A model generated the notes under the pieces. The model was not told where the DNA came from and made no database searches. It saw only the letters and a list, made by a program, of their open reading frames with translations. Positions 2,417 through 18,567 of a stretch of DNA of 20,000 bases are shown here, one piece after another (positions within the stretch are counted from its first letter, which is position 1; each line of letters starts with the position of its first letter). The translations under genes and the position numbers were made by a program. Source of the stretch: an uncultured virus (IMG/VR IMGVR_UViG_3300028805_000097) (taxonomy: Duplodnaviria > Heunggongvirae > Uroviricota > Caudoviricetes); the IMG/VR virus record IMGVR_UViG_3300028805_000097, positions 56,970-76,969 of that record; one strand, written 5' to 3'.

Positions 2417-2530
2417 AAAACCTAAAACCATGAAAAACATGAATAACTAAAAACCTTTTGAATATTATTATGAGCAAATCGAGTTGTATCTTCCTATATA
2501 TGTTGTAATGTACTTTTTTAAGTCCTTTAT

Positions 2531-2563
2531 AAAAACTTATCTATCTTCGCAGACTGATAAGTT
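2531..2563 (-). terminator. intrinsic terminator, GCGA tetraloop
   Basis: AACTTATC-A-GTCT-GCGA-AGAT-A-GATAAGTT-TTT. Confidence 0.75.
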
Positions 2564-2635
2564 ATTGATTAACTAATCCAAAACAAAATATAATGTGTTA
2601 TGCCTATGTACCTTTATGTACTTTTTTAAGTCGGT

Positions 2636-2668
2636 GCAAAGTTACACATTTTCCATGTAATAACCAAA
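2636..2668 (-). promoter_or_regulatory. Bacteroidota sigma-A promoter (no ORF downstream)
   Basis: TTTG-N20-TAACTTTGC; 37 nt identical to 10166-10202. Confidence 0.85.
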
Positions 2669-2746
2669 TCCCTTAACATTTATTATATATTATGCAGGGT
2701 ACACCTTATCGTATTTCTTCTCACATTTGGAGTTGTAGAAAGTAAC

Positions 2747-2974
2747 TTAACGTGCCATAAATCTCGGTGAACCACCACGATGAGTGTCGATGTAGTAAAC
2801 ATCTTCCTTTACATCAGTCTTTTCGTAGGTAACTTTCTCACCCATTAGTTTGGCTGCCCTCTTGCATTCTTTTACCGCTTCCCAATCGCAGCCAGTAGTC
2901 GTGCGATAATTCCAATCACCTCGCCACCAATCTACCGAATATATGTTGGTCTTCTTTACAATCTTTCTTGCCAT
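2747..2974 (-). CDS. hypothetical protein (75 aa)
   Basis: Last ORF of a tightly packed operon; ATG 4 nt after the upstream stop. Confidence 0.75.
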   Translation of the reverse strand: MARKIVKKTNIYSVDWWRGDWNYRTTTGCDWEAVKECKRAAKLMGEKVTYEKTDVKEDVYYIDTHRGGSPRFMAR

Positions 2975-2978
2975 AGTC

Positions 2979-3194
2979 TTAACTCTCTGCTATCATGTCT
3001 AATAACTCTTGTAAACTTAACTCTTCGTAAGCCTTGTTACCTCTGGAGATAAACAATGGCTTATGGGTTTCGTGGAATCTCTCCAGAGCCATAAGTAATG
3101 ACTTCTGGGAATCAGCATTAAACCACTGCGTTTCTCTATCCAGAATCTTACCGCTTTTTGTTTGCCCTAATCCTACTCTAATAACGTTTGCCAT
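2979..3194 (-). CDS. hypothetical protein (71 aa, MANVIR...)
   Basis: Start moved to the ATG at 3194, just after the upstream stop. Confidence 0.75.
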   Translation of the reverse strand: MANVIRVGLGQTKSGKILDRETQWFNADSQKSLLMALERFHETHKPLFISRGNKAYEELSLQELLDMIAES

Positions 3195-3198
3195 AATT

Positions 3199-3549
3199 TT
3201 AATTATTTTCAATAAAAAATACATCCGTGTAATTACCTCCCATAAACTTCGGGGTTAACTTCTGTCTGCCCTTAAAGTCCTCCATTGCTTCTGTCCTATC
3301 GTTGAAATAGGTAATGTTCTGATAACCTACCAAGCCATTGTTATAGCGGATGGATGCAGGGACACCAAATCTATTCTCATATTTTTCCCCACAATCCACT
3401 TTAACCTCTGTGTAGGCTACTGCATACTTGCAAGCATTAAAAGAGCCACTAAAGACCTTTTTCTTGTCCTCTCCGATAACGTAATAGTTGTTATCAACAC
3501 TGAAAGAAATTCGCTTGCCCTCTGTTGTAAATGATTGCCTTGCTCTCAT
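3199..3549 (-). CDS. hypothetical protein (116 aa)
   Basis: ORF with A-rich leader inside the operon. Confidence 0.8.
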   Translation of the reverse strand: MRARQSFTTEGKRISFSVDNNYYVIGEDKKKVFSGSFNACKYAVAYTEVKVDCGEKYENRFGVPASIRYNNGLVGYQNITYFNDRTEAMEDFKGRQKLTPKFMGGNYTDVFFIENN

Positions 3550-3563
3550 AACCTTATATGTTT

Positions 3564-3665
3564 TTAATCGTTCTTACCACAAGCAATCCAGCCAATCGGT
3601 TTACCATCGTAGGCGTAGCCTATTGCCTTGTGCTTGATTCCGTTAATATACTTATACTTCTTCAT
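3564..3665 (-). CDS. small hypothetical protein (33 aa, MKKYKYINGIKHKAIGYAYDGKPIGWIACGKND)
   Basis: Not in ORF track; ATGA overlap with the upstream stop and fills the gap. Confidence 0.65.
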   Translation of the reverse strand: MKKYKYINGIKHKAIGYAYDGKPIGWIACGKND

Positions 3666-3967
3666 GACCTTATATCAATATTGTTAAACAATTTAGATGA
3701 ATCCCACATATTTCTGTTCTCGTCCTCGCACCACTTGTCGTATTGGTCGCAGGATAATCTTTCTTCAAGTTCCACCTTGAACACGCATACCTTTTCGCAC
3801 ACGTATTGGTAGAGTAACCTATTCGCTTTCTTTCTTGCGCTCTCGAAGTATTGGTAGCACTTCGGATAACGTCTAAAGAACCATGCTAAGACGTTACCTT
3901 CTTGCAGGGTGCATCCAACACCATCAATGAACACCACTACGATGTATCTAACCTTGCTCTTATCCAT
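3662..3967 (-). CDS. hypothetical protein (101 aa)
   Basis: First ORF after promoter 3993-4025. Confidence 0.8.
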   Translation of the reverse strand: MDKSKVRYIVVVFIDGVGCTLQEGNVLAWFFRRYPKCYQYFESARKKANRLLYQYVCEKVCVFKVELEERLSCDQYDKWCEDENRNMWDSSKLFNNIDIRS

Positions 3968-3992
3968 AACTCATGTTTGTTAAATTGATAGT

Positions 3993-4025
3993 GCAAAGTT
4001 ACACATTATCCAGCATATATCCAAA
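3993..4025 (-). promoter_or_regulatory. Bacteroidota sigma-A promoter
   Basis: TTTG...TAACTTTGC. Confidence 0.85.
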
Positions 4026-4044
4026 TTATTTAATATTATTTAAT

Positions 4045-4080
4045 AAAAATGACTGACCCTATTCGCATAGAGCCAGCCAC
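4045..4080 (-). terminator. intrinsic terminator, GCGA tetraloop
   Basis: 14-bp stem GTGGCTGGCTCTAT/ATAGGGTCAGTCAT with GU pairs, then T run. Confidence 0.8.
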
Positions 4081-4099
4081 CAAATATGAAAAACGAAAA

Positions 4100-4789: not shown

Positions 4790-4817
4790 AATGTTGTTAT
4801 TTAATTGGTTTGATGCT

Positions 4818-4850
4818 GCAAAGTTACAAAAAAAGATTGGAATAACCACG
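4818..4850 (-). promoter_or_regulatory. Bacteroidota sigma-A promoter
   Basis: TAACTTTGC with degenerate -33. Confidence 0.8.
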
Positions 4851-4929
4851 TATTACTCCAATCTTTTATAGTTTATTAACAATCAGTGAGGTCTTATCTT
4901 GCTGATACTATGGCGTTGCAAGTTCTTAT
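4818..4929. repeat. direct repeat, copy 1 (112 bp)
   Basis: 105/112 identical to 6278-6389. Confidence 0.95.
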
Positions 4930-5032
4930 TAAAGTCAGCCTTTACCTCTCTCATGCTCCTGCGTGGCATCATGCTGGGGTAGGGTGCAATCCTTCTCCCT
5001 GTAAGCCTGTCGTAAAACCTGTTATCGTTCAT
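4883..5032 (-). CDS. small basic hypothetical protein (49 aa, MNDNRFYD...KNLQRHSISKIRPH)
   Basis: Not in ORF track; C-terminus shared with ORF 6343-6999. Confidence 0.6.
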   Translation of the reverse strand: MNDNRFYDRLTGRRIAPYPSMMPRRSMREVKADFNKNLQRHSISKIRPH

Positions 5033-5049
5033 ATATAGTGTATATATTA

Positions 5050-5550: not shown

Positions 5551-5603
5551 AATGATTGCGTATTAAATAACCTACTTGTACTGATTTAAGTACATTTATT
5601 TGT

Positions 5604-5852
5604 TTAGTTGTTAATAATGTTTACAATCTGATAGCCGTAACACCACTTATGATTATCAAGGCTGAAAGTGTATTCAACACCATGCCCGAAATCTCCAGCC
5701 CTATCATCGAAGTTTACTTCGTCGATGGGTTCACCATACTTTTCGCCACACTCGCATTCCTCAATGGCTACAACCACTGCTACATTGGTTTCTTTATCGT
5801 TGGGTAAGCGATATTCAACCTTCGTACCTTTTTTAATGACTTGTTTCTCCAT
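5604..5852 (-). CDS. hypothetical protein (82 aa, MEKQVIKKG...)
   Basis: Start moved downstream of promoter 5875-5907. Confidence 0.8.
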   Translation of the reverse strand: MEKQVIKKGTKVEYRLPNDKETNVAVVVAIEECECGEKYGEPIDEVNFDDRAGDFGHGVEYTFSLDNHKWCYGYQIVNIINN

Positions 5853-5918: not shown

Positions 5919-5957
5919 AAAAAAAATTAAGGGTGCTGACCGAATTGTCAACACCCT
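5919..5957 (-). terminator. intrinsic terminator
   Basis: AGGGTGTTGAC/GTCAGCACCCT then TAATTTTTTTT. Confidence 0.75.
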
Positions 5958-5997
5958 GCATCAACTTATAAGATATGAGCAAAGAAAAGAAATCGTC

Positions 5998-6249
5998 TTA
6001 TATCATCCGTAGAGTAACCTTTTCAATATCACGATGTTTCAAACTAATCTCGAAACAGATGTTGCTATTAAGCCATTCCTCTGGGGTCTTGCAATCTGGC
6101 TCGTACATACTCCATAACTCGTAAGTGCCAATCACCTCGCCATCATAGAGCATTTCAATCTTCTTGCCATAACCTGTCATTGCGGTCATGTTGTGGTACT
6201 TCGTTGCATAGGTCTTAACCTGCTTGCGTAATTTTGCAATCTTTTCCAT
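5998..6249 (-). CDS. hypothetical protein (83 aa)
   Basis: Own promoter and terminator. Confidence 0.8.
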   Translation of the reverse strand: MEKIAKLRKQVKTYATKYHNMTAMTGYGKKIEMLYDGEVIGTYELWSMYEPDCKTPEEWLNSNICFEISLKHRDIEKVTLRMI

Positions 6250-6277
6250 ATAATTCGTTATTTAATTGTTTGATGGG

Positions 6278-6310
6278 GCAAAGTTACGGAAAAAGATTGG
6301 AATAACCACG
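6278..6310 (-). promoter_or_regulatory. Bacteroidota sigma-A promoter
   Basis: TAACTTTGC with degenerate -33. Confidence 0.8.
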
Positions 6311-6389
6311 TATTACTCCAATCTTTTATAGTTTATTAACAATTAATGTGGTCTTGTCTTGCTGATACTATGACGTTGCAAGTTCTTAT
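6278..6389. repeat. direct repeat, copy 2 (112 bp)
   Basis: 105/112 identical to 4818-4929. Confidence 0.95.
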
Positions 6390-6999
6390 CACTATCCGTA
6401 TCGTAGATAGCACGAAGACTCTCCAGTTCTTTTTCTTCGAACTTTTCCATTTCCAGTATGTAGTCACGCTCTTCCGAAGCACCTTGCCAGTCCAGTTCAG
6501 CCTCGAAGCGTAGTGCTGCGCTGCGTACAAGTTCTACAGCGGTGTCGTAGCCATAGACTCCCGACATATTGTATATCTGTTTGTATATATCGGCAGCAAG
6601 CAGGATAAAGGTTTCAGCCAGTTTGAAGGCGTTGTCTCCAGTTGATTTTACATACGCATTATTCTTTGGGTCGCAATCCAGTTTACCATATTTGAGACAA
6701 ACGTCATACTGGTTAATCCCGTCATCAATGCCAGTGTAGTCACAGATGGCATTCTGTTTCCTCGTGCATTCCTTGATACACTCCATCTTAGAGTAAGTCA
6801 TAAACAGACCGCTACCATCTGTAGCTATAGCCAGTCCATCGTAGAACTCCATTTCAATTTCACACTCTCCGTTTTCGTCGAACTCGTGGAGTTTGTTAAA
6901 TGGGTGCTCCAGTTTTCTCAATGCCTTGCGGTTAGCAGGCGTATCGTACACTATAATGGTGTCGATGTAGTTGGGGATAATTTCAAATGTTCTTTCCAT
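6343..6999 (-). CDS. hypothetical protein (218 aa) with a possibly chimeric C-terminus
   Basis: Own promoter; last 14 codons lie in a duplicated segment. Confidence 0.85.
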   Translation of the reverse strand: MERTFEIIPNYIDTIIVYDTPANRKALRKLEHPFNKLHEFDENGECEIEMEFYDGLAIATDGSGLFMTYSKMECIKECTRKQNAICDYTGIDDGINQYDVCLKYGKLDCDPKNNAYVKSTGDNAFKLAETFILLAADIYKQIYNMSGVYGYDTAVELVRSAALRFEAELDWQGASEERDYILEMEKFEEKELESLRAIYDTDSDKNLQRHSISKTRPH

Positions 7000-7024
7000 A
7001 ATACATATAATTTAAATTGACGCT

Positions 7025-7057
7025 GCAAAGTTACACAAAAAAGTTGGAATAACCATG
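7025..7057 (-). promoter_or_regulatory. Bacteroidota sigma-A promoter
   Basis: TAACTTTGC with degenerate -33. Confidence 0.8.
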
Positions 7058-8722: not shown

Positions 8723-9031
8723 TTAATATACTATTACCTCTCCTAATGTCTGGTGAAAAGCACCTATACTATCTTCCAGAGTATAGATGTCAGCACCTTT
8801 TGCTAACCCATCCTGCAATGCTTGTGCGTAATCTTCGTTACCTTCACTAAAAGCATCCGAAATCCAGACGTCCACCATTTCTGGGTCTGGTTCTTCCAGA
8901 GAATAATTGCCGAACGAATCAGAATCAGTTTCCAACATCTTTAATACAATGTCATTCTGGTCTTTTGTAATCCCCAGAGTAACCACCTTTGTGCCATCAG
9001 TAAGCACGTTTTCAAAATTTTGTAATTCCAT
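8723..9031 (-). CDS. acidic hypothetical protein (102 aa)
   Basis: First ORF after promoter 9060-9092. Confidence 0.8.
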   Translation of the reverse strand: MELQNFENVLTDGTKVVTLGITKDQNDIVLKMLETDSDSFGNYSLEEPDPEMVDVWISDAFSEGNEDYAQALQDGLAKGADIYTLEDSIGAFHQTLGEVIVY

Positions 9032-9059
9032 AATACTTAATATTTAATTGTTTGACACG

Positions 9060-9092
9060 GCAAAGTTACACAAAAAAATCGAGAAAACCAAA
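9060..9092 (-). promoter_or_regulatory. Bacteroidota sigma-A promoter
   Basis: TTTG...TAACTTTGC. Confidence 0.85.
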
Positions 9093-9141
9093 GGTCTCCT
9101 CGACTTTTTAACAATTTTTATAATTATGGATACTTACAGCC

Positions 9142-9891
9142 TTACCATCCATACACCTTTGCCACGTAGGGGCGTAGGCTTCTGGTTGCCTTTCTAAACT
9201 GCTCTTCTGTCATACCCTTGTAGGCAATGGCATTAATAAGGTTTTCAGCCTGCTCACGGCTCTTTGCAACCCTGTAAAGGTAGTAGTTAGTGCCGTCGTG
9301 ATGCGAAGCCCTACAGCGGACGTTATGCTGGTCACAATACCAATCCAGATATTCACAATCAGAACGCAGAATTTGTTTAACGTTAGTGCCGATAATACCA
9401 CCACCATTATGTCTGCCATCCCAGAGTCCAAGGTCAACGAAAGCCACGATACAGCCATCTACTTCAATATCCAGATTAGCCCTTTCGTCATCAAGACACA
9501 GGTCACAATCTTCGTGATAACGTTCGTAGTCAATAGTGATACCTTCTTCTTCCCTTGTTTCCTCGTCTGGATAGTCGATAAGCATACATGCTTCCCACTC
9601 GTCGTAGTTGTCGTTAGTCCAGATAACCCTGTGATTGACGTCGATATAACCATCAGACGTAACAGGGCGAGCGCACATCATTTTAAAATGCCGACGTACA
9701 TCATTCTCTGTACCATTATCGAAGTTAACAGCCTCAACCTTAACGAGTCTGTGCCTGTTTGGTGAAGTTGTGACATCCCACTTATCTTCATACATAACAC
9801 CACGCAGCCAAATGCCTGCCTTACCTTCGTGCTGGTAAACCTTCAATAGTTTGTTAGCCAGACGATACCTTGCAATTAACTTATTTCCCAT
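9142..9891 (-). CDS. hypothetical protein (249 aa; LGLWDGR...HHDGTNYYLYR)
   Basis: Long ORF; motifs recall an uncharacterised gut-phage family (from memory, unverified). Confidence 0.85.
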   Translation of the reverse strand: MGNKLIARYRLANKLLKVYQHEGKAGIWLRGVMYEDKWDVTTSPNRHRLVKVEAVNFDNGTENDVRRHFKMMCARPVTSDGYIDVNHRVIWTNDNYDEWEACMLIDYPDEETREEEGITIDYERYHEDCDLCLDDERANLDIEVDGCIVAFVDLGLWDGRHNGGGIIGTNVKQILRSDCEYLDWYCDQHNVRCRASHHDGTNYYLYRVAKSREQAENLINAIAYKGMTEEQFRKATRSLRPYVAKVYGW

Positions 9892-9912
9892 AATCTTATA
9901 ATTGTTAGTTGT

Positions 9913-10143
9913 TTATAATAAGACCTTATCGGTCAGTGAATTTGTCATATCCCAGAGATTACCCATAGTGACGTGCTTCTCTCCAAGTAAGCGGTTATCA
10001 CTGCTATACTTATATATATGCACGCTAATAGTCCACTGGTCAAGCCCATTCCTAAGAATAGCCGTAACGTCTCTCCATTGCTTCAACCCATTCTTATACT
10101 CTGGGTCAGCATTTTTCTTTTCAATGATTAAACTATATTCCAT
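9913..10143 (-). CDS. hypothetical protein (76 aa)
   Basis: First ORF after promoter 10167-10199. Confidence 0.8.
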   Translation of the reverse strand: MEYSLIIEKKNADPEYKNGLKQWRDVTAILRNGLDQWTISVHIYKYSSDNRLLGEKHVTMGNLWDMTNSLTDKVLL

Positions 10144-10166
10144 AACTTTATTGTTTTATTGACGCT

Positions 10167-10199
10167 GCAAAGTTACACATTTTCCATGTAATAACCAAA
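10167..10199 (-). promoter_or_regulatory. Bacteroidota sigma-A promoter
   Basis: TTTG...TAACTTTGC. Confidence 0.85.
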
Positions 10200-10223
10200 T
10201 CCTTTAATATTTTTTAAGAAAAT

Positions 10224-10258
10224 AAAAGGGCTGCAACCTGCCTAGCAAGCCACAGCCC
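10224..10258 (-). terminator. intrinsic terminator
   Basis: GGGCTGTGGCTTGC/GCAGGTTGCAGCCC then TTTT. Confidence 0.8.
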
Positions 10259-10295
10259 AGCGTCAACAACTAAATATTAGATATGGAAAGAAGCG

Positions 10296-10763
10296 TTATA
10301 TCAAATCCAGATGCTCATAGTAGACCTCGTAGTCGAGCCAGTTCCCACAAACACCCATAGTCAAGCTATCAATCATAGTGTTGAAGTCAGCCAGAACCTC
10401 AGCATCTTCATCGTCTTCTTCTGCCAGTGCTAACCGCTCTGCCAGAATCTCGTATAGCTCTTTGCGAAGGTCATCAGTTCCAAACTGCTGGTCACGAACG
10501 ATGCAGACTGTCTGTTTATCGCCCTCTTCGTCCTCGAAGCACAGGACTGCCATCTTTGGGTAAATATCCCAGATATGGTCTGGATTGAGTTTAGAAGGGT
10601 CTTTAACTTCCGTAACCACTGCCGATGCTACTTCCTTCTTTGAAACGAGCATGTTTGTCTCTTTAGCCATCTTAACGATATTCTCGTTACTGGTCGGCTC
10701 ACATCTAACATACTGGGTCTTCTTACCCTTGTTAGTCTTAATTTCGTAAACTTTCTTTTCCAT
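10296..10763 (-). CDS. hypothetical protein (155 aa, acidic C-terminal half)
   Basis: Own promoter and terminator. Confidence 0.85.
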   Translation of the reverse strand: MEKKVYEIKTNKGKKTQYVRCEPTSNENIVKMAKETNMLVSKKEVASAVVTEVKDPSKLNPDHIWDIYPKMAVLCFEDEEGDKQTVCIVRDQQFGTDDLRKELYEILAERLALAEEDDEDAEVLADFNTMIDSLTMGVCGNWLDYEVYYEHLDLI

Positions 10764-10844
10764 AATCTTTTAAATTAAATTGTTTGTTAATATTTGAAAG
10801 GGAGCGAGGACTCGAACCTTCTTTCTCCCTTGTTGTTTGGTGGT

Positions 10845-10878
10845 GCAAAGTTACACAAAACCCAGGAAATAACCAAAT
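10845..10878 (-). promoter_or_regulatory. Bacteroidota sigma-A promoter
   Basis: TTTG...TAACTTTGC. Confidence 0.85.
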
Positions 10879-10891
10879 TCCTTAACGTTTT

Positions 10892-11266
10892 TTAAGAATA
10901 TCGCTCCACAATGTCACGGAACTTAAGCGGATAGTTCCCCAGATTTACCTTTATGGCAGCTACCATCTTATCGAACTTGCTTTCCACGAACTTGGATAAA
11001 ATGTCCTCAACACTCTCCTTGAAGTCGAAATGCTTAAATTCGATAATGGCATTACGCTTGCCTTGTGAGTCTCTGATAGCCTCGGAAAAACGCTTGTAAC
11101 TCTTAGGGTCGTTCAAGTCAAATTCACTACCGAACTTGCCCAGAAGGATAATTTCAACAATGCGTGCTACACCACAATTCTCGCCAAGATAGGCACGGCA
11201 CATCTGGAAGTTCAGCAGGAAGTCTGCACTCCGCTTGTAGCCTTCGTAAATCTTAGTATTCTTCAT
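10892..11266 (-). CDS. hypothetical protein (124 aa)
   Basis: ORF in operon. Confidence 0.8.
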   Translation of the reverse strand: MKNTKIYEGYKRSADFLLNFQMCRAYLGENCGVARIVEIILLGKFGSEFDLNDPKSYKRFSEAIRDSQGKRNAIIEFKHFDFKESVEDILSKFVESKFDKMVAAIKVNLGNYPLKFRDIVERYS

Positions 11267-11284
11267 ATATCTAATGTTATTTAA

Positions 11285-11506
11285 TTAATCTACTTCAAAG
11301 TTGTTTTTATCAAACTCCTTATAGTCGAATATGCAAGCAAACATTTCACTTGAATTAGCCCAGCAATATTCGTTTAGTTCATCATTGGTAAGACCATTTT
11401 CCTTAGCAATCTCACCCAACCTTTTATCAATGATTTCAATTTTCTCTGGAGTGTAGCAACTCTCCAAACCATCAATTAATTGTCTCCTTACTTCTTTAAT
11501 ATCCAT
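11285..11506 (-). CDS. acidic hypothetical protein (73 aa)
   Basis: ORF in operon. Confidence 0.8.
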   Translation of the reverse strand: MDIKEVRRQLIDGLESCYTPEKIEIIDKRLGEIAKENGLTNDELNEYCWANSSEMFACIFDYKEFDKNNFEVD

Positions 11507-11530
11507 AATACTATTATTTAATTATACTTA

Positions 11531-11656
11531 CTAATGGTCTATCTGCGAATTATATCCACTACGATAGATACCCTGTGCTCTCTCACATGCATACTGCTCA
11601 TCTAACCACTTTTCTTGTGGGCTTTCATAAGCATGGTTTCCAAATTGACTACTCAT
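11531..11656 (-). CDS. small hypothetical protein (41 aa, MSSQFGNHAYESPQEKW...)
   Basis: Not in ORF track; first ORF after promoter 11696; ends TAG TAA; leader duplicated in the next gene. Confidence 0.65.
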   Translation of the reverse strand: MSSQFGNHAYESPQEKWLDEQYACERAQGIYRSGYNSQIDH

Positions 11657-11695
11657 ATTACTTTATTATTTAATTATACTTATTGTTTATCGTTG

Positions 11696-11728
11696 GCAAA
11701 GTTACAGAAAATTTTCGAAATAACCAAA
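11696..11728 (-). promoter_or_regulatory. Bacteroidota sigma-A promoter
   Basis: TTTG...TAACTTTGC. Confidence 0.85.
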
Positions 11729-11740
11729 TTTTTTCCTAAT

Positions 11741-11780
11741 AAAAAAAGTGCATTGAACACTCCCCAATGTCCAACGCACT
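11741..11780 (-). terminator. intrinsic terminator
   Basis: AGTGCGTTGGACATT/AGTGTTCAATGCACT then T6. Confidence 0.85.
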
Positions 11781-11793
11781 GATTTTAAAAGGT

Positions 11794-12240
11794 TTACTCC
11801 TTAGAATCGTTTTCAATACGCTCCTTCATCTTATAGAACATATTGGCATATTTCTTAGCCTCGTCGAGTTGTATCTGGAGTTTGGGCAGTCTCACTTCTG
11901 CCTCCCACCAAAGGTAATACTTAACGTCATCCAGAACCTTCTGCAAGTCCTTTGTAAACATATCGTCAAGCGCAACCTTCTTAACAAAGCTACCTGTCAT
12001 CCTGTTATAAACGATAGGGAACTTCTGGATAGATGTGCCATATTCCTCAGCATTTTCGTCATACTTATAGACCGCAAAGCATGATACAAATAAATATTTC
12101 TTAGTGATAGAACTATAAGGTCTTTCCTGCCCTACACAATGGCAAGCGTGACCTGCCTTGTTCAAATAATCTTCGGAGAACGTGAAGGTCTTACCTCCTA
12201 CGATGTTGCGAATCTCCTTTAAAATCTCTTCTCTTTCCAT
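11794..12240 (-). CDS. hypothetical protein (148 aa)
   Basis: ORF followed by a terminator. Confidence 0.85.
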   Translation of the reverse strand: MEREEILKEIRNIVGGKTFTFSEDYLNKAGHACHCVGQERPYSSITKKYLFVSCFAVYKYDENAEEYGTSIQKFPIVYNRMTGSFVKKVALDDMFTKDLQKVLDDVKYYLWWEAEVRLPKLQIQLDEAKKYANMFYKMKERIENDSKE

Positions 12241-12252
12241 AATGATATTGTT

Positions 12253-12546
12253 TTACTTAAATAAAAACTCTATTGTCACTTGCTCTGTGAAAGCCTTGAA
12301 ATACTTACACATCACTCTCTTATGCCAAGGGGTCAGCACGCAGCATTGAGATAGATTAAATACGGCAACATCGTGACGTAAATCACTCACCTGCCCCATA
12401 AACATTGTAAGAGCCTTAAACTCCGCTTCATTGAGACACATAGTAACCACAATAGGCTCGCCATAGTGTCCACCAATGCAACTTCCATCATCGAACTCCT
12501 TGTAGAAGCCGTTCCTGTCCGTAATTCTTACTTTATACCTTTTCAT
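12253..12546 (-). CDS. hypothetical protein (97 aa)
   Basis: First ORF after promoter 12571-12603. Confidence 0.8.
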   Translation of the reverse strand: MKRYKVRITDRNGFYKEFDDGSCIGGHYGEPIVVTMCLNEAEFKALTMFMGQVSDLRHDVAVFNLSQCCVLTPWHKRVMCKYFKAFTEQVTIEFLFK

Positions 12547-12570
12547 ATCTTTATTGTTTAAATTGACATG

Positions 12571-12603
12571 GCAAAGTTACACAAAAAAATCGGGAAAACC
12601 AAA
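12571..12603 (-). promoter_or_regulatory. Bacteroidota sigma-A promoter
   Basis: TTTG...TAACTTTGC. Confidence 0.85.
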
Positions 12604-12631
12604 TGTTCACCCGATTTCTTAACATTATTTA

Positions 12632-13267
12632 TTAAATAGCAGGAATGAAATACCCATCAATTTCTTTCATGCCCTTGATGGCATTCTTGGAGTTGGTAAC
12701 TCCGATGCGGTCGTAAGCCCATGAACCGATACGCTTATCCTTCTGCCAGTCGTAGTTGTCTCTTTTTACAACGTAGTCACCACCACCTTCACCATTACCA
12801 TCGCAGCACAGGATTGGAAGGGGATGCGTTCGCCATTCTTTTTTGTTATACTTTTTAATCTTTACGTATTCCTTCTTGGTGAAGTTGATAGCGTAGGCAT
12901 AGTAGGGTGCATCGTCGCCATATTCACGAGCGAATGCCAGAGCGAAGTCTTTAGCCTTCTTACTCTCCGCAATCTCTCGTGCCATAGGATAGAGATTGCA
13001 AGTTCCCTCATCATTTTCATCGGCTGGATAAGCCTTTGTTACCTTTGGGTCTGCATAGTCACCAAGCCACACAAAGGGTTTTCCGTAGTATTCGTTTGCC
13101 AACAGCCAGCAGGCAGCAGCAACAAATTTATTACCGCACCATGAATGTTCAGTGAGTTTCTGACCGCAAAATGCTCCATAATCATAAGAGCGAATCGAAT
13201 AAGCAACTGGCTTCTTTACTCTCTTCCAGTTCTCCTTTAAAAAGGTTGGTTTATAATATTGTCCCAT
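12632..13267 (-). CDS. conserved phage hypothetical protein (MGQYY...KLTEHSW...WLGDYAD...HPLP...GNGEGGGDY...GSWA)
   Basis: Own promoter; motif pattern recalls a widespread uncharacterised phage family (from memory, unverified). Confidence 0.85.
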   Translation of the reverse strand: MGQYYKPTFLKENWKRVKKPVAYSIRSYDYGAFCGQKLTEHSWCGNKFVAAACWLLANEYYGKPFVWLGDYADPKVTKAYPADENDEGTCNLYPMAREIAESKKAKDFALAFAREYGDDAPYYAYAINFTKKEYVKIKKYNKKEWRTHPLPILCCDGNGEGGGDYVVKRDNYDWQKDKRIGSWAYDRIGVTNSKNAIKGMKEIDGYFIPAI

Positions 13268-13298
13268 AATTGAAAAAAATTAAGTTGTTTAACATGGT

Positions 13299-13331
13299 GC
13301 AAAGTTACACAAAAAAATTGAGAAAACCATA
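13299..13331 (-). promoter_or_regulatory. Bacteroidota sigma-A promoter
   Basis: TATG...TAACTTTGC. Confidence 0.8.
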
Positions 13332-13360
13332 AGTTCTCTCAATCTTTTAACATTTTTTAG

Positions 13361-13450
13361 TACGTCGGGCGGGGGTCGAACCCGCAAGACGCTTTTGACG
13401 GCATCTGTCAGATTTTAAGTCTGATGTGTACACCATTCCACCACCGACGC
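13361..13450 (-). tRNA. tRNA-Leu (anticodon UAA)
   Basis: Acceptor GCGTCGG/CCGACGT, D-loop GGAATGGT, anticodon arm TCAGA-CT TAA AA-TCTGA, long variable arm, T arm GCGGG-TTCGACC-CCCGC, discriminator A; CCA not encoded. Confidence 0.93.
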
Positions 13451-13451
13451 A

Positions 13452-13467
13452 TGTTTCACGTGAAACA
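13452..13467. promoter_or_regulatory. parS: parS centromere-like site
   Basis: Second perfect TGTTTCACGTGAAACA. Confidence 0.85.
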
Positions 13468-13469
13468 AT

Positions 13470-13507
13470 AAAAAACCATCCATTGTCTTCACAGATTCTG
13501 GATGGTT
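13470..13507 (-). terminator. intrinsic terminator, GTGA tetraloop
   Basis: AACCATCCA...TCT-GTGA-AGA...TGGATGGTT then TTTT. Confidence 0.8.
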
Positions 13508-13532
13508 ACTTTTTATGACAAATAAATATTAC

Positions 13533-13799
13533 TTATTTCGCCTCAAATTTCTTAAAGACGTGATGCAATCCGTTCTGGGTTTTACCCCACGTCACAATAC
13601 CATCCAGTTCTCCGTTACTGAATGCTAAGCATAATCGGTCATGTGTCTCGTCGATATGCTCCATCTTTATTGCTTCTGGCTTCTCTGTGAAAACCTCGTA
13701 GTCTGCAATCCTCTCTGTTATAATGTCGCAGGCTTTATCCTTGTTGATAAAGGTGCAGTTTTCAAAAGCCTTGTTTATTGCGTTAACTCTCTGTGCCAT
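13533..13799 (-). CDS. hypothetical protein (88 aa)
   Basis: Own promoter and terminator. Confidence 0.8.
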   Translation of the reverse strand: MAQRVNAINKAFENCTFINKDKACDIITERIADYEVFTEKPEAIKMEHIDETHDRLCLAFSNGELDGIVTWGKTQNGLHHVFKKFEAK

Positions 13800-13835
13800 A
13801 GTTGTAATATAAATATTGCTTATTGCTATTTTTGT

Positions 13836-13868
13836 GCAAAGATATAAATTTTTTTCCAGAAAAACAAG
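13836..13868 (-). promoter_or_regulatory. Bacteroidota sigma-A promoter
   Basis: CTTG...TATCTTTGC. Confidence 0.8.
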
Positions 13869-13871
13869 TTT

Positions 13872-14012
13872 TTAACGATTTTTTTTCGCTTTCTGCCATC
13901 CCTTTAGCTTATGTCGCTTTCTGGGGTGAAACTCCGCATCTGTAGTTGTGATAATGCAAGGGAGAAAAACGTCCCTGTAGCTGTAGCTGAATGATAAACT
14001 AAATATTCTCAT
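13872..14012 (-). CDS. small basic hypothetical protein (46 aa, MRIFSLSF...KGWQKAKKNR)
   Basis: Not in ORF track; A-rich leader, fills the gap. Confidence 0.5.
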   Translation of the reverse strand: MRIFSLSFSYSYRDVFLPCIITTTDAEFHPRKRHKLKGWQKAKKNR

Positions 14013-14124
14013 AACTCTTATTCTTTAACGTTCTTAAGTTTCTTTTTAAATTCTGGGGAAGTCACCACATCGGCAACCATGACCCCCAGAGATAATAGTA
14101 GAAATAATCCAAATCCCATAGCAT

Positions 14125-14592
14125 TCAATTTTCAAAGAAATCCATCTGCCAGACCTTATCCGTGAAATAACGGCTGTAGAAGTCTTGATATTCCTTTACC
14201 CTGTCAACATACAGCAGGACGTATGGAATGAGCGTATCGAGGCTGTTAAGCAGGAAATTCCCTATGTTATCCACTGGCATCATGCCCTCGTCAGCCTTGC
14301 CGTTGAACATAAACAATCCATCTGGGTAACGGAAGGGAGTGTTAACCACGAAAGCGATAGCCTTTGCTGACATCATGCCTTTTTGTACAAGGTACGCCAA
14401 ATCTTCTGTCTTGTTGATGTTAAAGATGTAGTCAGTGCCACCACGTTCGTCCTCTCGCATTCTGTTGTAAGCATCCAGAACAATCTGGAGACCATTACCT
14501 TTGCGGAAGTCATCTTTCACTTGTTTCTTGATGAACTCTGTGATAAACTCCAGAGCGTCACTCATTTTCATGTTTGTTGTTGTCTTATCCAT
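14125..14592 (-). CDS. hypothetical protein (155 aa)
   Basis: First ORF after promoter 14624-14656. Confidence 0.85.
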   Translation of the reverse strand: MDKTTTNMKMSDALEFITEFIKKQVKDDFRKGNGLQIVLDAYNRMREDERGGTDYIFNINKTEDLAYLVQKGMMSAKAIAFVVNTPFRYPDGLFMFNGKADEGMMPVDNIGNFLLNSLDTLIPYVLLYVDRVKEYQDFYSRYFTDKVWQMDFFEN

Positions 14593-14623
14593 AACTGATT
14601 AATATTAAGTTGTAAAATATGGT

Positions 14624-14656
14624 GCAAAGTTACACAAAAAATCTGGAATAACAAAG
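14624..14656 (-). promoter_or_regulatory. Bacteroidota sigma-A promoter
   Basis: TTTG...TAACTTTGC. Confidence 0.85.
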
Positions 14657-14671
14657 AAATTGCCTTGTTTT

Positions 14672-14956
14672 TTAATTATTATTCACAATTCTATTATACC
14701 ACTGACTATATTCTTCATCACATTGCGATTTCAGAATATTATAGTTCTCCGTAGTATCTGGATAAAAGTCATTTAAGTCATTCATGCGTAAACGAATCTT
14801 AATCCCCTCACTTTCAATGATAACCTTATCTTCTGCTTCATTTACAGAGAGAATAACGCTCTGTGTAACTACATGATGACACTGCATATCCAGACCAAGT
14901 GATAACACCTTGCAAGGAAGCAAACATTTGACACCTTTGATTACTATTGTTTCCAT
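14672..14956 (-). CDS. hypothetical protein (94 aa, METIVIKG...)
   Basis: Start moved to the ATG 4 nt after the upstream TAG. Confidence 0.8.
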   Translation of the reverse strand: METIVIKGVKCLLPCKVLSLGLDMQCHHVVTQSVILSVNEAEDKVIIESEGIKIRLRMNDLNDFYPDTTENYNILKSQCDEEYSQWYNRIVNNN

Positions 14957-14960
14957 AATT

Positions 14961-15260
14961 CTATTTATAAGTTTCCCAATTCCAGACATCCCAAGGGAAT
15001 GTGTTTAATGCCCACAGGATTTCCTTTTGTATATCCTCTGGTAGTTCAGATACCTCCCAACAAGGGTCATACTCTCCGTTCTCATCCTCGTCATTTGAAT
15101 CGTAGGCAATCAACCCAGAATTAGTAATCTCAACTGCATTTACAATTCTTGGGTATTCATCACCATCTTCATCGAACTCTGATGTGATTTCGACATTGTG
15201 ACCGAATCCCATTCTGGTCATTCCTTTGCTCTCTAATAGAGCGATAATCTCTTTTTCCAT
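14961..15260 (-). CDS. acidic hypothetical protein (99 aa)
   Basis: First ORF after promoter 15288-15320. Confidence 0.8.
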   Translation of the reverse strand: MEKEIIALLESKGMTRMGFGHNVEITSEFDEDGDEYPRIVNAVEITNSGLIAYDSNDEDENGEYDPCWEVSELPEDIQKEILWALNTFPWDVWNWETYK

Positions 15261-15287
15261 AATTCTATTGTTTAATTGTTTGACGTG

Positions 15288-15320
15288 GCAAAGTTACCAA
15301 AAAAGATTGGAATATCCAAG
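15288..15320 (-). promoter_or_regulatory. Bacteroidota sigma-A promoter
   Basis: CTTG...TAACTTTGC. Confidence 0.8.
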
Positions 15321-15345
15321 AGATACCCCAACCTTTTAACGTTTT

Positions 15346-15567
15346 TTAAATCAAATCCTTGAACTCTACTTCGATTGGGTCTGGGTCACCCTCTGGGTAA
15401 TACTGGGTGTCAGTAATCCAATCCCATGAGTAGTCACCTTCGAAGGCGTAGTTGTCATTGATGTACGCATGTTCGTCACCACCATACTTTTCTTCCAGCT
15501 CCTGTTCGTTAACGTCCTCAATAAGCAGTTCGTGGTCGTGGTGGTCAATAATAGCAATCCTTTTCAT
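15346..15567 (-). CDS. very acidic hypothetical protein (73 aa)
   Basis: ATG 4 nt after the upstream stop. Confidence 0.8.
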   Translation of the reverse strand: MKRIAIIDHHDHELLIEDVNEQELEEKYGGDEHAYINDNYAFEGDYSWDWITDTQYYPEGDPDPIEVEFKDLI

Positions 15568-15571
15568 AATC

Positions 15572-15997
15572 TTATAGTTCCATTAGTGTCCATTTAATCC
15601 CTTTACTTTTCTTGGTGTAGTGCTCGTCTGGCTCTGTACCATCCTCATAGTCACCAGTGTTAATCCACATATCCAGAGAGATAAGTTGTCCACAAGCATC
15701 TACCGTAATCTCGTACACATGACCCTTGTAGGCAAACGTTGCTGAAAACTCTGTGTCCTCGTCAGCCTTGTTTTGAAGTTCTCCTGTGTAGAAATACTTA
15801 CTAAAGGTAAACGTTGTTTCCTCTTTCGCATCCTTGTCTTTAATGGCGACGATTAATCCATTCTTGGGGTTTACGAGGTTATTGTATTCCTCGTTTGTAA
15901 TCGTCTGGGTGTACACATCTTTCACCTCATAGTGTCCGTAGAAGCTGTTGTCATAGACCTTTCTGGTGGTCTCTACCTTTAAAAATCCTATTACCAT
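15572..15997 (-). CDS. hypothetical protein (141 aa, MVIGFLK...)
   Basis: Start moved downstream of promoter 16024-16056. Confidence 0.85.
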   Translation of the reverse strand: MVIGFLKVETTRKVYDNSFYGHYEVKDVYTQTITNEEYNNLVNPKNGLIVAIKDKDAKEETTFTFSKYFYTGELQNKADEDTEFSATFAYKGHVYEITVDACGQLISLDMWINTGDYEDGTEPDEHYTKKSKGIKWTLMEL

Positions 15998-16023
15998 AAT
16001 CCTATTGTTTAATTGTTGATGGT

Positions 16024-16056
16024 GCAAAGTTACACATATTCCAGAATATAACCAAA
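16024..16056 (-). promoter_or_regulatory. Bacteroidota sigma-A promoter
   Basis: TTTG...TAACTTTGC. Confidence 0.85.
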
Positions 16057-16075
16057 TTCCTTAACGTTTTTTAAG

Positions 16076-16113
16076 AAAACAATGTGGGGACACCCCATCT
16101 GGAGCATCCCCAC
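16076..16113 (-). terminator. intrinsic terminator
   Basis: GTGGGGATGCTCC/GGGGTGTCCCCAC then ATTGTTTT. Confidence 0.7.
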
Positions 16114-16165
16114 CTCAACCTAACAATTCATTATGGAAAACAACAGCGTTTCACAACGCAAAGAG

Positions 16166-16302
16166 GGGGGTCTGCTGGATTCAAACCAGCCATCGGAGCG
16201 TCAACTTAGGTACTGGATGGGAACAGTCTATTTAACCCATAAACCTATATTACCATGCAATATAATCCTAAGCGTCTCTTACCAACTCTAAGCGGAGACC
16301 CC
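16166..16302 (-). ncRNA. tRNA-like RNA with an enlarged, branched anticodon domain
   Basis: Acceptor GGGGTCT/AGACCCC, D-like loop AGTTGGTA, T arm GCTGG-TTTGAAT-CCAGC; anticodon arm replaced by a roughly 80-nt branched region. Confidence 0.65.
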
Positions 16303-16689
16303 ACGTTAGAAATGGTCACCTTATAGCTACTATAATTATCGATGTAGTGACTTCGGGCAACCAAACCACTCAAAAAGAAAGGTTATATGTATAGTGAGCG
16401 GTAAAGTCAGATACGTACCATGCCCCATCAGCCTATGTTGAGTTGTCCCGTGAAAAGCCTGTAAACGTCTTAGTTATGCGGCTCTCTGGTGGCACGTATA
16501 CGAATAAATTTCTTATAAACTATAATAAAATCAGTGTAAAATATTATCCCTTAATAGGGTCGGTCTCTCTGTCTCATTATTCTCTAAGTTTTATATTTCG
16601 GCATTAAAATACATAATAAATAATAATTCTTATATCCCTTAATTGGGCGGGGGTCTTTCACTATTATTCATTTCTCTACATTTTAATTG

Positions 16690-16911
16690 TTAATGAATCT
16701 GGGAAGATGGGGGAGGCTTCGGAGGCGGCTCTGGCTGCTTATTGCGCCATGCGGCTCTGCGCCTTGCCCCTGTTCCCTTTTTTGGTCAACGCATTGGACG
16801 AACTTTATACAGCTGGGTCTTAGTTCCGTCCTCGTTCTCTCTGACCTTGCTTGGCATAGCTACCACCCGAATGTTGCGAGTGAGCTTATCCAGTCTCTTT
16901 TGTCCACTCAT
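16690..16911 (-). pseudogene. basic Pro-rich ORF interrupted by an in-frame TGA (41 aa, or 73 aa if read through)
   Basis: MSGQKRL...KVRPMR-TGA(16786-88)-PKKGTGARRRAAWRNKQPEPPPKPPPSSQIH-TAA. Confidence 0.5.
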
Positions 16912-16990
16912 AAGTGCTAAAGTTTTAGTAAAGTAATTTTCTCATAAGCCCTCATAAGTTTTAAATTGTTCTACTTATTGTTATTGCGGT

Positions 16991-17023
16991 GCAAAGATAC
17001 AGATTTTTTTCGTAAAAACCAAA
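16991..17023 (-). promoter_or_regulatory. Bacteroidota sigma-A promoter (micro-ORF/ncRNA unit)
   Basis: TTTG...TATCTTTGC. Confidence 0.85.
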
Positions 17024-17047
17024 TTCTGGTTTACTTTTTTATCTTAT

Positions 17048-17266
17048 TTAACAATATGCACCTTGATAGTCCAGAAATTCCTGCGTCTCCAGAGTTGTCT
17101 TAATTTCATCGTCGAGCTGGTCATCGTCTATCTCGTCGTTCTCGTCTCGGAAGTGGTCGAGTGTAAGACCTTCAAGCCCACAAACGTAGTCTCCGTGTTC
17201 GTCGTAGATGTCAATACCACCTAAACGCTCCTTAGCTTCGTAGCCGCTTTCAGTTGTATGTACCAT
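17048..17266 (-). CDS. very acidic hypothetical protein (72 aa)
   Basis: ORF with A-rich leader. Confidence 0.8.
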   Translation of the reverse strand: MVHTTESGYEAKERLGGIDIYDEHGDYVCGLEGLTLDHFRDENDEIDDDQLDDEIKTTLETQEFLDYQGAYC

Positions 17267-17370
17267 ATCTCTATTCTTTTAAAGTAGGCTGGGTGGCAGG
17301 ACAATCTGCCGCTTATGGCGTTGTACGCACTGCTCCGCTGTCCTATAACGCACCCAAGCCTGTGTTGTTA

Positions 17371-17721
17371 TTACTTATCTAAATTCTCATAGATGAATGC
17401 AGCCACGTCGTACACTTCATCCCAATTGATATTCTGGATGGGATATTCGCTGCAATCCTCTGTCTGGAGTTTGATTTCTCCATGCTTGTCGAGGTGTACA
17501 CCTTCTACCATTGAGTAAGCATTACTGGCATACTCTGGATGGTTGCCACCATCGTAGGTCACTGTCACCATTTCTTCACACTCTGTAAAGTCAGCACTTC
17601 CACCATTCGCTTCCAAGAACCGCTTGATGTAGGTCTCGCATTTACTACCAATCTCCTTTTGTTTGGAGATAATGCTGTCGTAGATTTCGTCAGCTTTCTT
17701 AAAATACGTTTGTCTTTTCAT
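17371..17721 (-). CDS. hypothetical protein (116 aa)
   Basis: First ORF after promoter 17747-17779. Confidence 0.85.
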   Translation of the reverse strand: MKRQTYFKKADEIYDSIISKQKEIGSKCETYIKRFLEANGGSADFTECEEMVTVTYDGGNHPEYASNAYSMVEGVHLDKHGEIKLQTEDCSEYPIQNINWDEVYDVAAFIYENLDK

Positions 17722-17746
17722 AATGTCTTATTGTTTGATTGATGGT

Positions 17747-17779
17747 GCAAAGTTACAGAAAATCTGGGAAATAACCAAA
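17747..17779 (-). promoter_or_regulatory. Bacteroidota sigma-A promoter
   Basis: TTTG...TAACTTTGC. Confidence 0.85.
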
Positions 17780-17830
17780 TGTTTCTTGAATTATTTTTGT
17801 TATACGTATAACTTTTTCTGGTTTCTTTAC

Positions 17831-17867
17831 AAAACACTATTGGGGACGTAGCCAATCCTACGCCCCC
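17831..17867 (-). terminator. probable terminator hairpin
   Basis: GGGGGCGTAG/CTACGTCCCC with a weak U tract. Confidence 0.6.
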
Positions 17868-17909
17868 TCATCTAACAATAACAATAAAACAATAAAAAAC
17901 TATGAAAAA

Positions 17910-18080
17910 CTAATCCTGCCTCAAAATCTGGCTTTCACGCTCTCCACAAATGGTAAACTCCTTAATGTCAGCCTCTTCTGCCATGTTACGTGCATTATCC
18001 AGTGCTTCACCCTCGTCGTTACCTGTTGCTTCCACAATGATGGAAGCATTGTAGTTTAATTGAATAGTATATTTACGCAT
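17910..18080 (-). CDS. small hypothetical protein (56 aa, MRKYTIQLNYNASIIVEATGNDEGEAL...)
   Basis: Not in ORF track; A-rich leader, protein-like composition. Confidence 0.75.
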   Translation of the reverse strand: MRKYTIQLNYNASIIVEATGNDEGEALDNARNMAEEADIKEFTICGERESQILRQD

Positions 18081-18118
18081 GATGTTTAATGTTTAATGTT
18101 TCCATAATAAAGTGAATA

Positions 18119-18445
18119 CTATGCCGCTTCCTTTGGCTTAACCTCTACGCCATCCTTATACAGCGTATTGAACGCTATTAGGACGTGCAGGACACTAATC
18201 TCGTCGGCACACTCAATCCCTCCTACTGACTCGATAATGGCATCAGCCATTTCTTTGCTGTCCTTTATCGCTTTCATCTGGGGATAAAACATATCAAACC
18301 TGTGACCCCTGTAGTTTTCACAAATGGCATGACCATCGTAAATGTCAAACTCGATAGGCTTCTTAAAACCCTCGATATTCAGTTTCTCCGTACAAACCTT
18401 CTTGCCGTAGAACTTTTCCCAAATTTTGTTTTCTTCTCTCTCCAT
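18119..18445 (-). CDS. hypothetical protein (108 aa)
   Basis: First ORF after promoter 18472-18504. Confidence 0.8.
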   Translation of the reverse strand: MEREENKIWEKFYGKKVCTEKLNIEGFKKPIEFDIYDGHAICENYRGHRFDMFYPQMKAIKDSKEMADAIIESVGGIECADEISVLHVLIAFNTLYKDGVEVKPKEAA

Positions 18446-18471
18446 CGTTTATTAATGTTTTATTCGATGGT

Positions 18472-18504
18472 GCAAAGATATATAAAAAAATTCAGAATCC
18501 AAAA
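18472..18504 (-). promoter_or_regulatory. Bacteroidota sigma-A promoter
   Basis: TTTG...TATCTTTGC. Confidence 0.85.
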
Positions 18505-18567
18505 TGAATCGGACTCTGAATTTCTTAAAAAAATTTAATTTAACAACTTATAATTATGGAAACATTA

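Follow-up and report, generated by a model that had tools for sequence, protein, structure and literature searches.

Base-pairing RNAs that hide translation start regions are well known. Among phage RNAs, c4 of P1/P7 and sar of P22 are antisense RNAs that hide a ribosome-binding region by pairing with it, and c4 comes from the same strand and the same transcript family as its target. Here we describe a set of short tracts in the final 20 kilobases (kb) of a 76,969-base record of an uncultured virus (IMGVR_UViG_3300028805_000097), a stretch of 20,000 nucleotides (nt) that is called the window below. The tracts lie at the 3' ends of minus-strand transcription units, ahead of hairpin terminators, and are antisense to the leader and start codon that the genes of this region have in common. 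Whereas c4 and sar are each one RNA with one or two targets and serve lysogenic immunity, several tracts would be directed here against a whole gene class, in what is apparently a lytic early region.

RNAs from the 3' ends of other transcripts provide two further comparisons. In Escherichia coli, 3'ETS-leuZ is derived from a transfer RNA (tRNA) trailer and acts as a sponge for other small RNAs. The tract named s7 below may resemble it, as a putative tRNA 3' trailer that ends at the operon terminator, so that tRNA processing would set its 5' end; in the window itself, the gene upstream of s7 is only tRNA-like. In the icaR messenger RNA (mRNA) of Staphylococcus aureus, a motif of the 3' untranslated region (UTR) pairs with the ribosome-binding region of the same molecule and represses its translation. 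While icaR pairs with its own 5' end, the strong tracts described here rank the leader of their own mRNA only 16th to 37th of 39.

In Bacteroides thetaiotaomicron, the multicopy FopS and GibS RNAs are reported to repress by pairing at translation initiation regions (PMC11697453). As described in the sources, they are chromosomal, mostly have their own promoter, carry the seed at the 5' end, act on susC-type mRNAs of polysaccharide utilization loci and bind RbpB (PMC11697453, PMC7366714). The phage tracts share with them a phylum without Shine-Dalgarno sequences and the layout of an open seed plus terminator, and one FopS member is described as derived from a 3' UTR. In all seven 3' ends that were folded, the tract was unpaired in the centroid and lay as an open seed 5' of a strong hairpin, which is the arrangement of FopS and GibS; the 5' ends are unmapped. 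The phage tracts differ in being located at transcript 3' ends and in having seeds that mirror the phage's own early leaders. Moreover, the FopS/GibS model of Rfam found no match by cmscan, either in the window at E <=1 or in 16050-17000 at E <=10.

Early shut-off at translation initiation regions is described for T4, where the RegB nuclease and the RegA repressor inactivate early mRNAs through a shared motif (PMC3014915). RegA and RegB are proteins with a GGAG Shine-Dalgarno target, whereas the agent proposed here is RNA and the target is an A-rich leader plus AUGGAAA. A literature search at the level of listings found no lytic-type phage with several 3'-end seeds aimed at its own early leader class.

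Antisense tracts ahead of terminators

The window appears to be an early region of the host-take-over type from a Bacteroidota phage. A typical unit of it consists of a promoter, an A-rich leader of 20-45 bases, ATG, the gene, its stop codon, a short 3' UTR and a hairpin terminator. A preliminary description of this DNA had pointed to at least nine units in which the stretch before the terminator reads, on the opposite strand, like a leader with its start codon. All nine strings quoted there are present at the coordinates given, and each is preceded on the minus strand by a stop codon or by non-coding sequence and followed by a hairpin terminator (Table 1). Tracts s2, s3, s4, s5, s8 and s9 are on the coding strand between stop codon and intrinsic terminator, and in five units the tract starts 3-11 nt past the stop codon. 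Four to five sites passed our controls, while the rest are not distinguishable from U-rich 3' UTR. These four to five sites and one well-formed small-RNA unit are a real, conserved and strand-specific feature, seen in position and strand, in an excess of class-specific complementarity, in predicted accessibility, in conservation and in structural covariation.

Motif counts were taken in 28 3' segments (3426 nt) and compared with 1000 dinucleotide shuffles, a comparison that the preliminary description had proposed. T[TC]CATA was seen 7 times vs 2.38 +/- 1.54 in the shuffles, 16 of which reached 7, and TT[TC]CATA was seen 6 times vs 0.93 expected, a count reached by 1 shuffle of the 1000; reversed and complement-only forms were not enriched. 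The density of T[TC]CATA was 2.04 per kb in the 3' segments vs 0.13 per kb in the coding sense. In addition, start-context motifs on the + strand are mostly intergenic (7/8, 4/4, 7/7 and 6/6 for four versions of the motif), intergenic DNA making up about a quarter of the window.

A leader profile built from 20 true leaders and run on both strands of the whole genome gave only four antisense matches in the early region, at 10258-10291, 16122-16139, 18537-18562 and 17866-17907. The first of these (E 0.041) spans profile positions 5-43, and the tracts were indeed correctly said to copy the first bases of the leaders (GCGTCAA, GCATCAA). Four antisense matches of score >=6 were observed, vs 0 in 60 in-place shuffles of the 3' segments; s3 has no leader-profile match. 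Predicted duplex energies against the 39 start regions of the window, taken as the mean of the five best and compared with 60 shuffles, were above shuffles for s5 (z -9.4), s7 (z -5.1), s8 (z -4.4), s3 (z -3.5) and s9 (z -3.3). For the two halves of 2417-2500 and for 4078-4099, 9100-9141 and 13505-13532, |z| was <=2.0. Tracts 4082-4099 and 13506-13532 and most of 2417-2455 are at chance level. Tract s4 matches 19/20 bases of the start region of gene 19049-19903.

The tracts could be read as chance products of U-rich 3' UTRs, or as real gene starts on the + strand, but we consider this very improbable. Chance level does apply to s2, s6, s4 and both s1 halves, which make up four to five of the nine, and a 52-amino-acid (aa) open reading frame (ORF) begins on the + strand at 16133; however, shuffles do not reproduce the four to five strong sites. 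The + strand ORFs at the tracts are 3-52 aa long, run antisense into minus-strand genes, and have lost their frame or their partner sequence in two relatives (L001 and L003, see below). As the preliminary description had it, no promoter faces the + strand: a strict composite promoter pattern occurs 18 times on the minus strand and 0 times on the + strand. With neither such promoters nor conserved ORFs, the tracts are very unlikely to be starts of real + strand transcripts, and + strand genes or promoters were rejected as candidates. G-U pairs in the terminator stems are present on minus-strand RNA only. Among the joints listed for four RNA runs, the contig data held no strand change at the tract sites.

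The strong tracts are complementary to both conserved blocks of the early leaders, which are the 5' block (R)TCAA(A)CAA and the start block (A/T)TATGGAAA together with the first codons. The 39 early start regions of the window were compared with the 67 other start regions of the same genome, which are similar in A+T (0.72 vs 0.74). Duplexes of -20 kcal/mol or better were predicted for s5 with 10/39 early vs 0/67 other start regions, for s7 with 14/39 vs 0/67 and for s8 with 10/39 vs 2/67. The preference of s5, s7, s8 and s9 for the early class had Mann-Whitney p values of 1.5e-7 to 2.5e-5, and s2, s6 and s1a had no such preference in this comparison. The preliminary description had left the targets as either host mRNAs or the phage's own early mRNAs; the complementarity narrows to the early class of the phage and favours own early mRNAs, the option that concerns timing.

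Within this class, perfect complements are 11-15 bases long. Those of s7 lie on the start regions of genes starting at 4789, 12240, 10763, 15260 and 18957, and those of s5 on start regions 6999 and 18957. Tract s9 has a 15-nt perfect complement at a start-like stretch (18094-18108) and a 13-nt one at start region 14948-14960 (start 14956). The best non-self window of s5 genome-wide is the leader at 6992-7028. The best phage-internal target of s3 is a coding site at genome positions 33349-33398 (-37.2 kcal/mol), which we take to be an outlier.

Because tract, terminator, promoter and next leader follow each other in that order within 40-120 nt, the tract might act in cis on read-through RNA. 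It would pair with the leader of the following gene in a long stem around the terminator-promoter module, which would hide the next start or form a site for RNase III, so that read-through RNA would be silenced or destroyed. The sib retroregulation of lambda is a precedent for an RNase III site in read-through RNA. Three tracts, s5, s8 and s1a, rank the next leader 2, 2 and 1 of 18, and the match extends past the likely transcription start by a few upstream bases, which are present in read-through RNA only. Moreover, the position of the tract 3-11 nt past the stop codon in five units is one where a terminating ribosome could modulate the pairing. However, the next leader is no better than any other: its ranks in the window are 1, 30, 13, 18, 10, 3, 32, 5, 3 and 25 of 39, and its mean normalised rank over 21 tracts of 5 genomes is 0.49. 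In s7 the seed is constant while the following leaders differ, and at two s7 loci another hairpin and a distant promoter come next. Since any early leader is a fair partner, some cis pairing could occur, yet such a role is weakened, and we regard it as unlikely.

On the strength of that mean rank, neighbour-specific pairing was dismissed as the chief constraint. Pairing within the same mRNA was also rejected: own-leader ranks are 3, 4, 17, 34, 6, 23, 8, 27, 37 and 16 of 39, and all five strong tracts fall at 16th-37th. The poor ranks of both next and own leaders thus weaken neighbour-specific and DNA-repeat explanations and leave class-wide pairing with the early leaders.

Conservation and the unit at 16076-16160

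Scanning by protein homology turned up a near-identical contig (L002) and two diverged relatives (L001 and L003) with about 70-87% DNA identity; these two, found independently of the seed, are the basis for judging the conservation of single tracts. Tracts s5, s7 and s9 are kept in both, and the adjoining hairpins differ by compensatory substitutions. At s5 and s9 the homology begins at the tract itself and the upstream gene is a different one: TGTTTCCATAA of s9 is kept behind a differing gene, and the cassette 10296-10846 is missing in both relatives, where s5 comes after a homologue of gene 10892-11266. Thus seed plus terminator behaves as a unit of its own that is able to follow different genes. 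In s8 the CAT is kept in both relatives and its position is shifted; of the two, only L001 has s4. L001 has lost the core of s3 together with one arm of the hairpin, the CAT of s2 is absent there too, and s6 is kept in neither. In these two relatives the seed is better conserved than the bases around it at s5, s7 and s9, partly so at s8 and s4, and not at s2, s3 and s6.

Antisense matches to the leader profile number 5 in L001, 3 in L003 and 3 each in two more distant records (G001 and G002). All 14 lie directly 5' of a terminator hairpin, several of them behind unrelated genes, and with the 4 in the window every extra leader-like copy is antisense. Pattern scans for s5 and for the terminator at 2385-2415 gave only the three contigs already found and no new relatives. 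In the cultured relative SJC03, genes of the first 27.5 kb are packed in operons with 6 composite promoters; the only antisense profile matches there are two weak ones (scores 2.7 and 2.3), which amounts to no signal. A helicase-based scan for a host or prophage genome gave one unrelated Hyphomonadaceae locus only.

These data also bear on a feature of the DNA without any RNA function. A phage repressor with a binding site in the early leaders might have a second, inverted operator here, a mobile terminator-promoter junction might be bounded by inverted repeats, or cassette shuffling might have left inverted gene starts behind as relics. Homology breakpoints do coincide with tracts (the cassette 10296-10846 just 5' of s5, TGTTTCCATAA at s9), the junction modules appear to be recombining repeats, and the similarity extends just upstream of the likely transcription start. 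However, the arms are not best matched to their own partner arm, which argues against terminal inverted repeats and invertible promoters; the mutual match of two arms expected of an invertible promoter or mobile junction was not found among the 21 tracts, where the mean normalised rank was 0.49. The + strand has no composite promoter, and the match takes in the start codon and the first codons. All 18 extra copies are antisense, an orientation that a symmetric operator would not call for, though sense copies may be selected against as false starts. Relics would not show what s7 has, namely a seed conserved above every leader and placed between covarying RNA hairpins. We hold a purely DNA-level origin to be slightly less likely still than the cis role.

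The best small-RNA candidate is s7. Its first hairpin has 5 base pairs and a GNRA-type loop and is followed by about 30 open bases and the terminator; the fold has a z score of -3.5 with the seed largely open, and the antisense match to the leader profile scores 6.4. Save for a difference of 0-2 bases in an A-run, the window, L001 and L003 have the same open stretch, while the flanks differ. The core was found in 5 viral contigs and 10 metagenome contigs. Among these loci, L001 and L003 were found by protein homology and 12 more were retrieved with the seed as pattern, so that the invariance of the seed is independent for the first three copies only. Over the 15 copies, double changes occur at two pairs of hairpin 1 and at three pairs of the terminator, and the hairpins have G-U pairs on the minus strand only. 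The change in A-run length and further indels break the frames of a small minus-strand ORF and of the 52-aa + strand ORF, and hence the unit is not coding.

In every locus the s7 unit is preceded by a tRNA-like 3' end, and in 9/15 loci ARAGORN predicts a tRNA there (Ser-tga, Gln, Tyr, four Val and two odd ones); at the upstream end of s7 in the window it found no tRNA, with introns allowed. At L004 605-678 and L006 751-824 the ARAGORN tRNAs ahead of s7 have a two-base 'anticodon', that is, a short anticodon loop. The leaders that come after the unit vary among loci.

Transcript data come from assembled contigs of metatranscriptome runs. Two runs of one sheep-gut sample contained 72% and 51% of the sampled words of 9001-19000. 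Contig word depth in run X1 varied from 0.4 to 369 along the window and was <=35 outside the peak bin; the peak, in bin 16009-16675 with s7 and the preceding non-coding stretch, reached 369 in X1 and 45 in X2, in a measure that sums other organisms and cannot rank genes. This gives a weak hint that the stretch with s7 yields abundant RNA.

That stretch comprises about 630 ORF-less bases (16150-16785, minus strand) between the s7 unit and a conserved ORF at 16786-16911 (41 aa, with a homologue in G002). It holds two copies of the motif TATCCCTTAAT[AT]GGG and ends in a tRNA-like T-arm. Neither a tRNA (ARAGORN, introns allowed) nor an Rfam match was found in it, and it may be an unknown structured RNA.

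The invariant 30-nt seed of s7, which has no outstanding target in the phage, could suggest that the RNAs act in trans on the start regions of host mRNAs, for host shut-off or counter-defence. Start regions of Bacteroidota are described as A-rich and without Shine-Dalgarno sequences (PMC7366714), and the repression by FopS and GibS in Bacteroides is reported to work by pairing at such regions (PMC11697453). However, the fit of the tracts to the early leaders is far closer than to the phage's 67 other start regions, which have to function in the same host, and generic host-like start regions are thus poor partners. Moreover, the exact s7 core was absent from both strands of 185,579 species genomes, in a scan that shorter or imperfect sites would escape. 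We take host targeting to be distinctly unlikely, and general host shut-off has no support here.

Proposed role in shut-off of early genes

Our explanation is that the 3'-end tracts pair with the leader and start shared by the phage's own early mRNAs and lower their translation, and we see the chances of its being right or wrong as evenly balanced. The anti-leader would be an unpaired, U-rich stretch of 30-40 bases, bounded 5' by the stop codon or a tRNA-like gene and 3' by the terminator hairpin. Many early mRNAs may be bound by such 3' ends at leader and start codon, and this pairing would block ribosome entry on A-rich leaders that work without Shine-Dalgarno pairing. The active form could be part of the full mRNA or a stable fragment protected by the terminator. 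As early RNA builds up, synthesis of early proteins would be damped or shut off. The unit at 16076-16160 may be a dedicated version with a 5' hairpin of its own, set free from the trailer behind a tRNA or tRNA-like gene. From position, complementarity and conservation we infer that these RNAs accumulate, pair in the cell and repress through pairing; action in trans and RNA processing would likewise be part of the scheme.

Several points weigh against this explanation. The RNA data are assembled contigs that have neither ends nor strand nor small-RNA species. No single target stands out, and the perfect matches, of only 11-15 nt, come from the shared consensus; for s7, coding sites are among the best non-self windows of the genome and equal the start regions. 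The losses of s3 and s4 and the lack of conservation of s2 and s6 mean that individual tracts are dispensable. The match of s5, s3 and s7 extends 2-4 bases beyond the likely transcription start (GCAGC-R-TCAA), a start inferred from promoter layout, and pairing in trans with promoter-initiated mRNAs needs no bases upstream of it. Furthermore, for the 12/15 s7 sequences retrieved by the seed pattern the invariance of the seed is circular, gene starts are the analyst's choices of ORF, and the duplex energies leave out target structure.

A wider and more tentative picture, possible rather than probable, is that of a family of rumen and gut Bacteroidota phages with an RNA-only, class-wide switch. 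A common leader would serve as 'address' on every early mRNA, and anti-address seeds at 3' ends, one of them a tRNA-trailer small RNA with a 30-nt seed invariant across lineages, would shut the whole early class off as its RNA accumulates. If true, phages of an abundant phylum of gut and rumen, one that lacks Shine-Dalgarno pairing, would have a simple means of shutting off early genes by RNA, a counterpart of the protein-based early shut-off by RegA and RegB of T4. The natural pairs of seed and 'address' would then be usable as orthogonal translational switches in Bacteroidota, and a leader profile antisense just 5' of terminators would be a computable signature for finding such circuits in uncultured phages.

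Table 1. Coordinates of tracts, hairpins and related features in the window
Feature	Position	Strand	Remarks
s7 module, best small-RNA candidate	16076..16160	minus	hairpin 1, seed, terminator
s7 hairpin 1	16146..16159	minus	
s7 seed	16114..16145	minus	single-stranded
s7 terminator hairpin	16084..16113	minus	
s7 U-run	16076..16083	minus	
tRNA-like T-arm and acceptor 3' strand	16165..16191	minus	directly 5' of the s7 module
s5 anti-leader tract	10259..10295	minus	3' UTR of gene 10296-10763; profile score 10.7, positions 5-43
s5 terminator hairpin	10228..10258	minus	14 pairs, then T-run; compensatory changes in L003
s8 anti-leader tract	17868..17909	minus	3' UTR of gene 17910-18080; profile score 6.0
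s8 terminator hairpin	17842..17867	minus	terminator scan
s9 anti-leader tract	18527..18567	minus	3' UTR of gene 18568-18957; profile score 6.1
s9 terminator hairpin	18485..18526	minus	overlaps -33 region of next promoter
s3 anti-leader tract, moderate support	5958..5997	minus	3' UTR of gene 5998-6249; duplex z -3.5
s3 terminator hairpin	5930..5957	minus	terminator scan
s4 tract, weak support	9110..9141	minus	profile score 2.8; duplex z -2.0
s2 tract, unsupported	4082..4099	minus	duplex z -1.7; early-class p 0.41
s6 tract, unsupported	13506..13532	minus	duplex z -1.0; early-class p 0.75
True early leader and start (example)	6992..7028	minus	gene 6343-6999; best predicted s5 partner, -31.9 kcal/mol, rank 1/39
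ORF-less unit	2378..2632	minus	behind orphan promoter 2637-2668; RNA A 2525-2632, RNA B 2378-2524
s1a stretch in RNA B	2465..2478	minus	14/14 nt complement of helicase start region 1855-1868, 600 bases downstream

Other features of the early region

The ORF-less unit at 2378-2632 is a separate, weaker candidate. It is predicted to give two tandem hairpin-terminated RNA stretches, has no ORF >=40 aa, and both terminators and a repeated 5' block are kept in L001. In L001 the helicase start has an A->G change in the target of s1a, and the pairing would be retained there as a U-G wobble, a single change. As a class match, 2465-2478 is not above shuffles (z -1.6).

The minus strand carries all long ORFs of the window, whose GC skew is negative over its whole length. 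The minus strand has 29 TAnnTTTG boxes, 24 of them intergenic with a TTTG(G) box about 19-23 bases upstream, a layout that is described for the primary sigma factor of Bacteroidota (PMC7366714). Terminator-like sites number 28, where shuffles have 13.8 +/- 3.8; all seven of the strongest belong to the minus strand. Because they have their own promoter and hairpin terminator each, most genes are taken to be single transcription units. A PHROGs scan of 35 proteins gave three family matches, namely a Dda/UvrD-like helicase and two families of unknown function; the helicase is closest to those of phages SJC03 and DAC16-23 of B. thetaiotaomicron, with 41% identity. Megablast of the window against 50,697 phage records gave no match. 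In the Rfam cmscan of the window tRNA-Leu alone passed, the other rows being far below gathering scores.

The junctions at 4790-4929 and 6250-6389, each with terminator, promoter and the preceding gene end, have 90% identity over about 150 bases, which points to recombination or gene conversion between junction modules. The longest ORF at 14672-14989 overlaps the preceding gene. The likelier start is the in-frame ATG at 14956, which lies in the standard AATTATGGAAAC context and with which the overlap disappears. A non-coding block at 1900-2340, upstream of the helicase gene, contains many CCAGC/GCTGG repeats and TATATA cores, and long stretches of it are near-identical in L001 despite diverged flanks. 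This block is a candidate for the origin of replication or for a packaging site.

Two copies of the perfect palindrome GTTTCACGTGAAAC are present, at 2336-2349 and 13454-13467, each directly after the U-run of a terminator, and the second copy, ahead of tRNA-Leu, is kept in L001 and has one different base in L003. The 5' leader of gene 10296-10763 (10790-10830, minus strand) forms a hairpin with a core like a tRNA T-arm (GGTTCGAGTCC), and one contig from the RNA runs joins 10795 to 13409, the latter position being inside tRNA-Leu.

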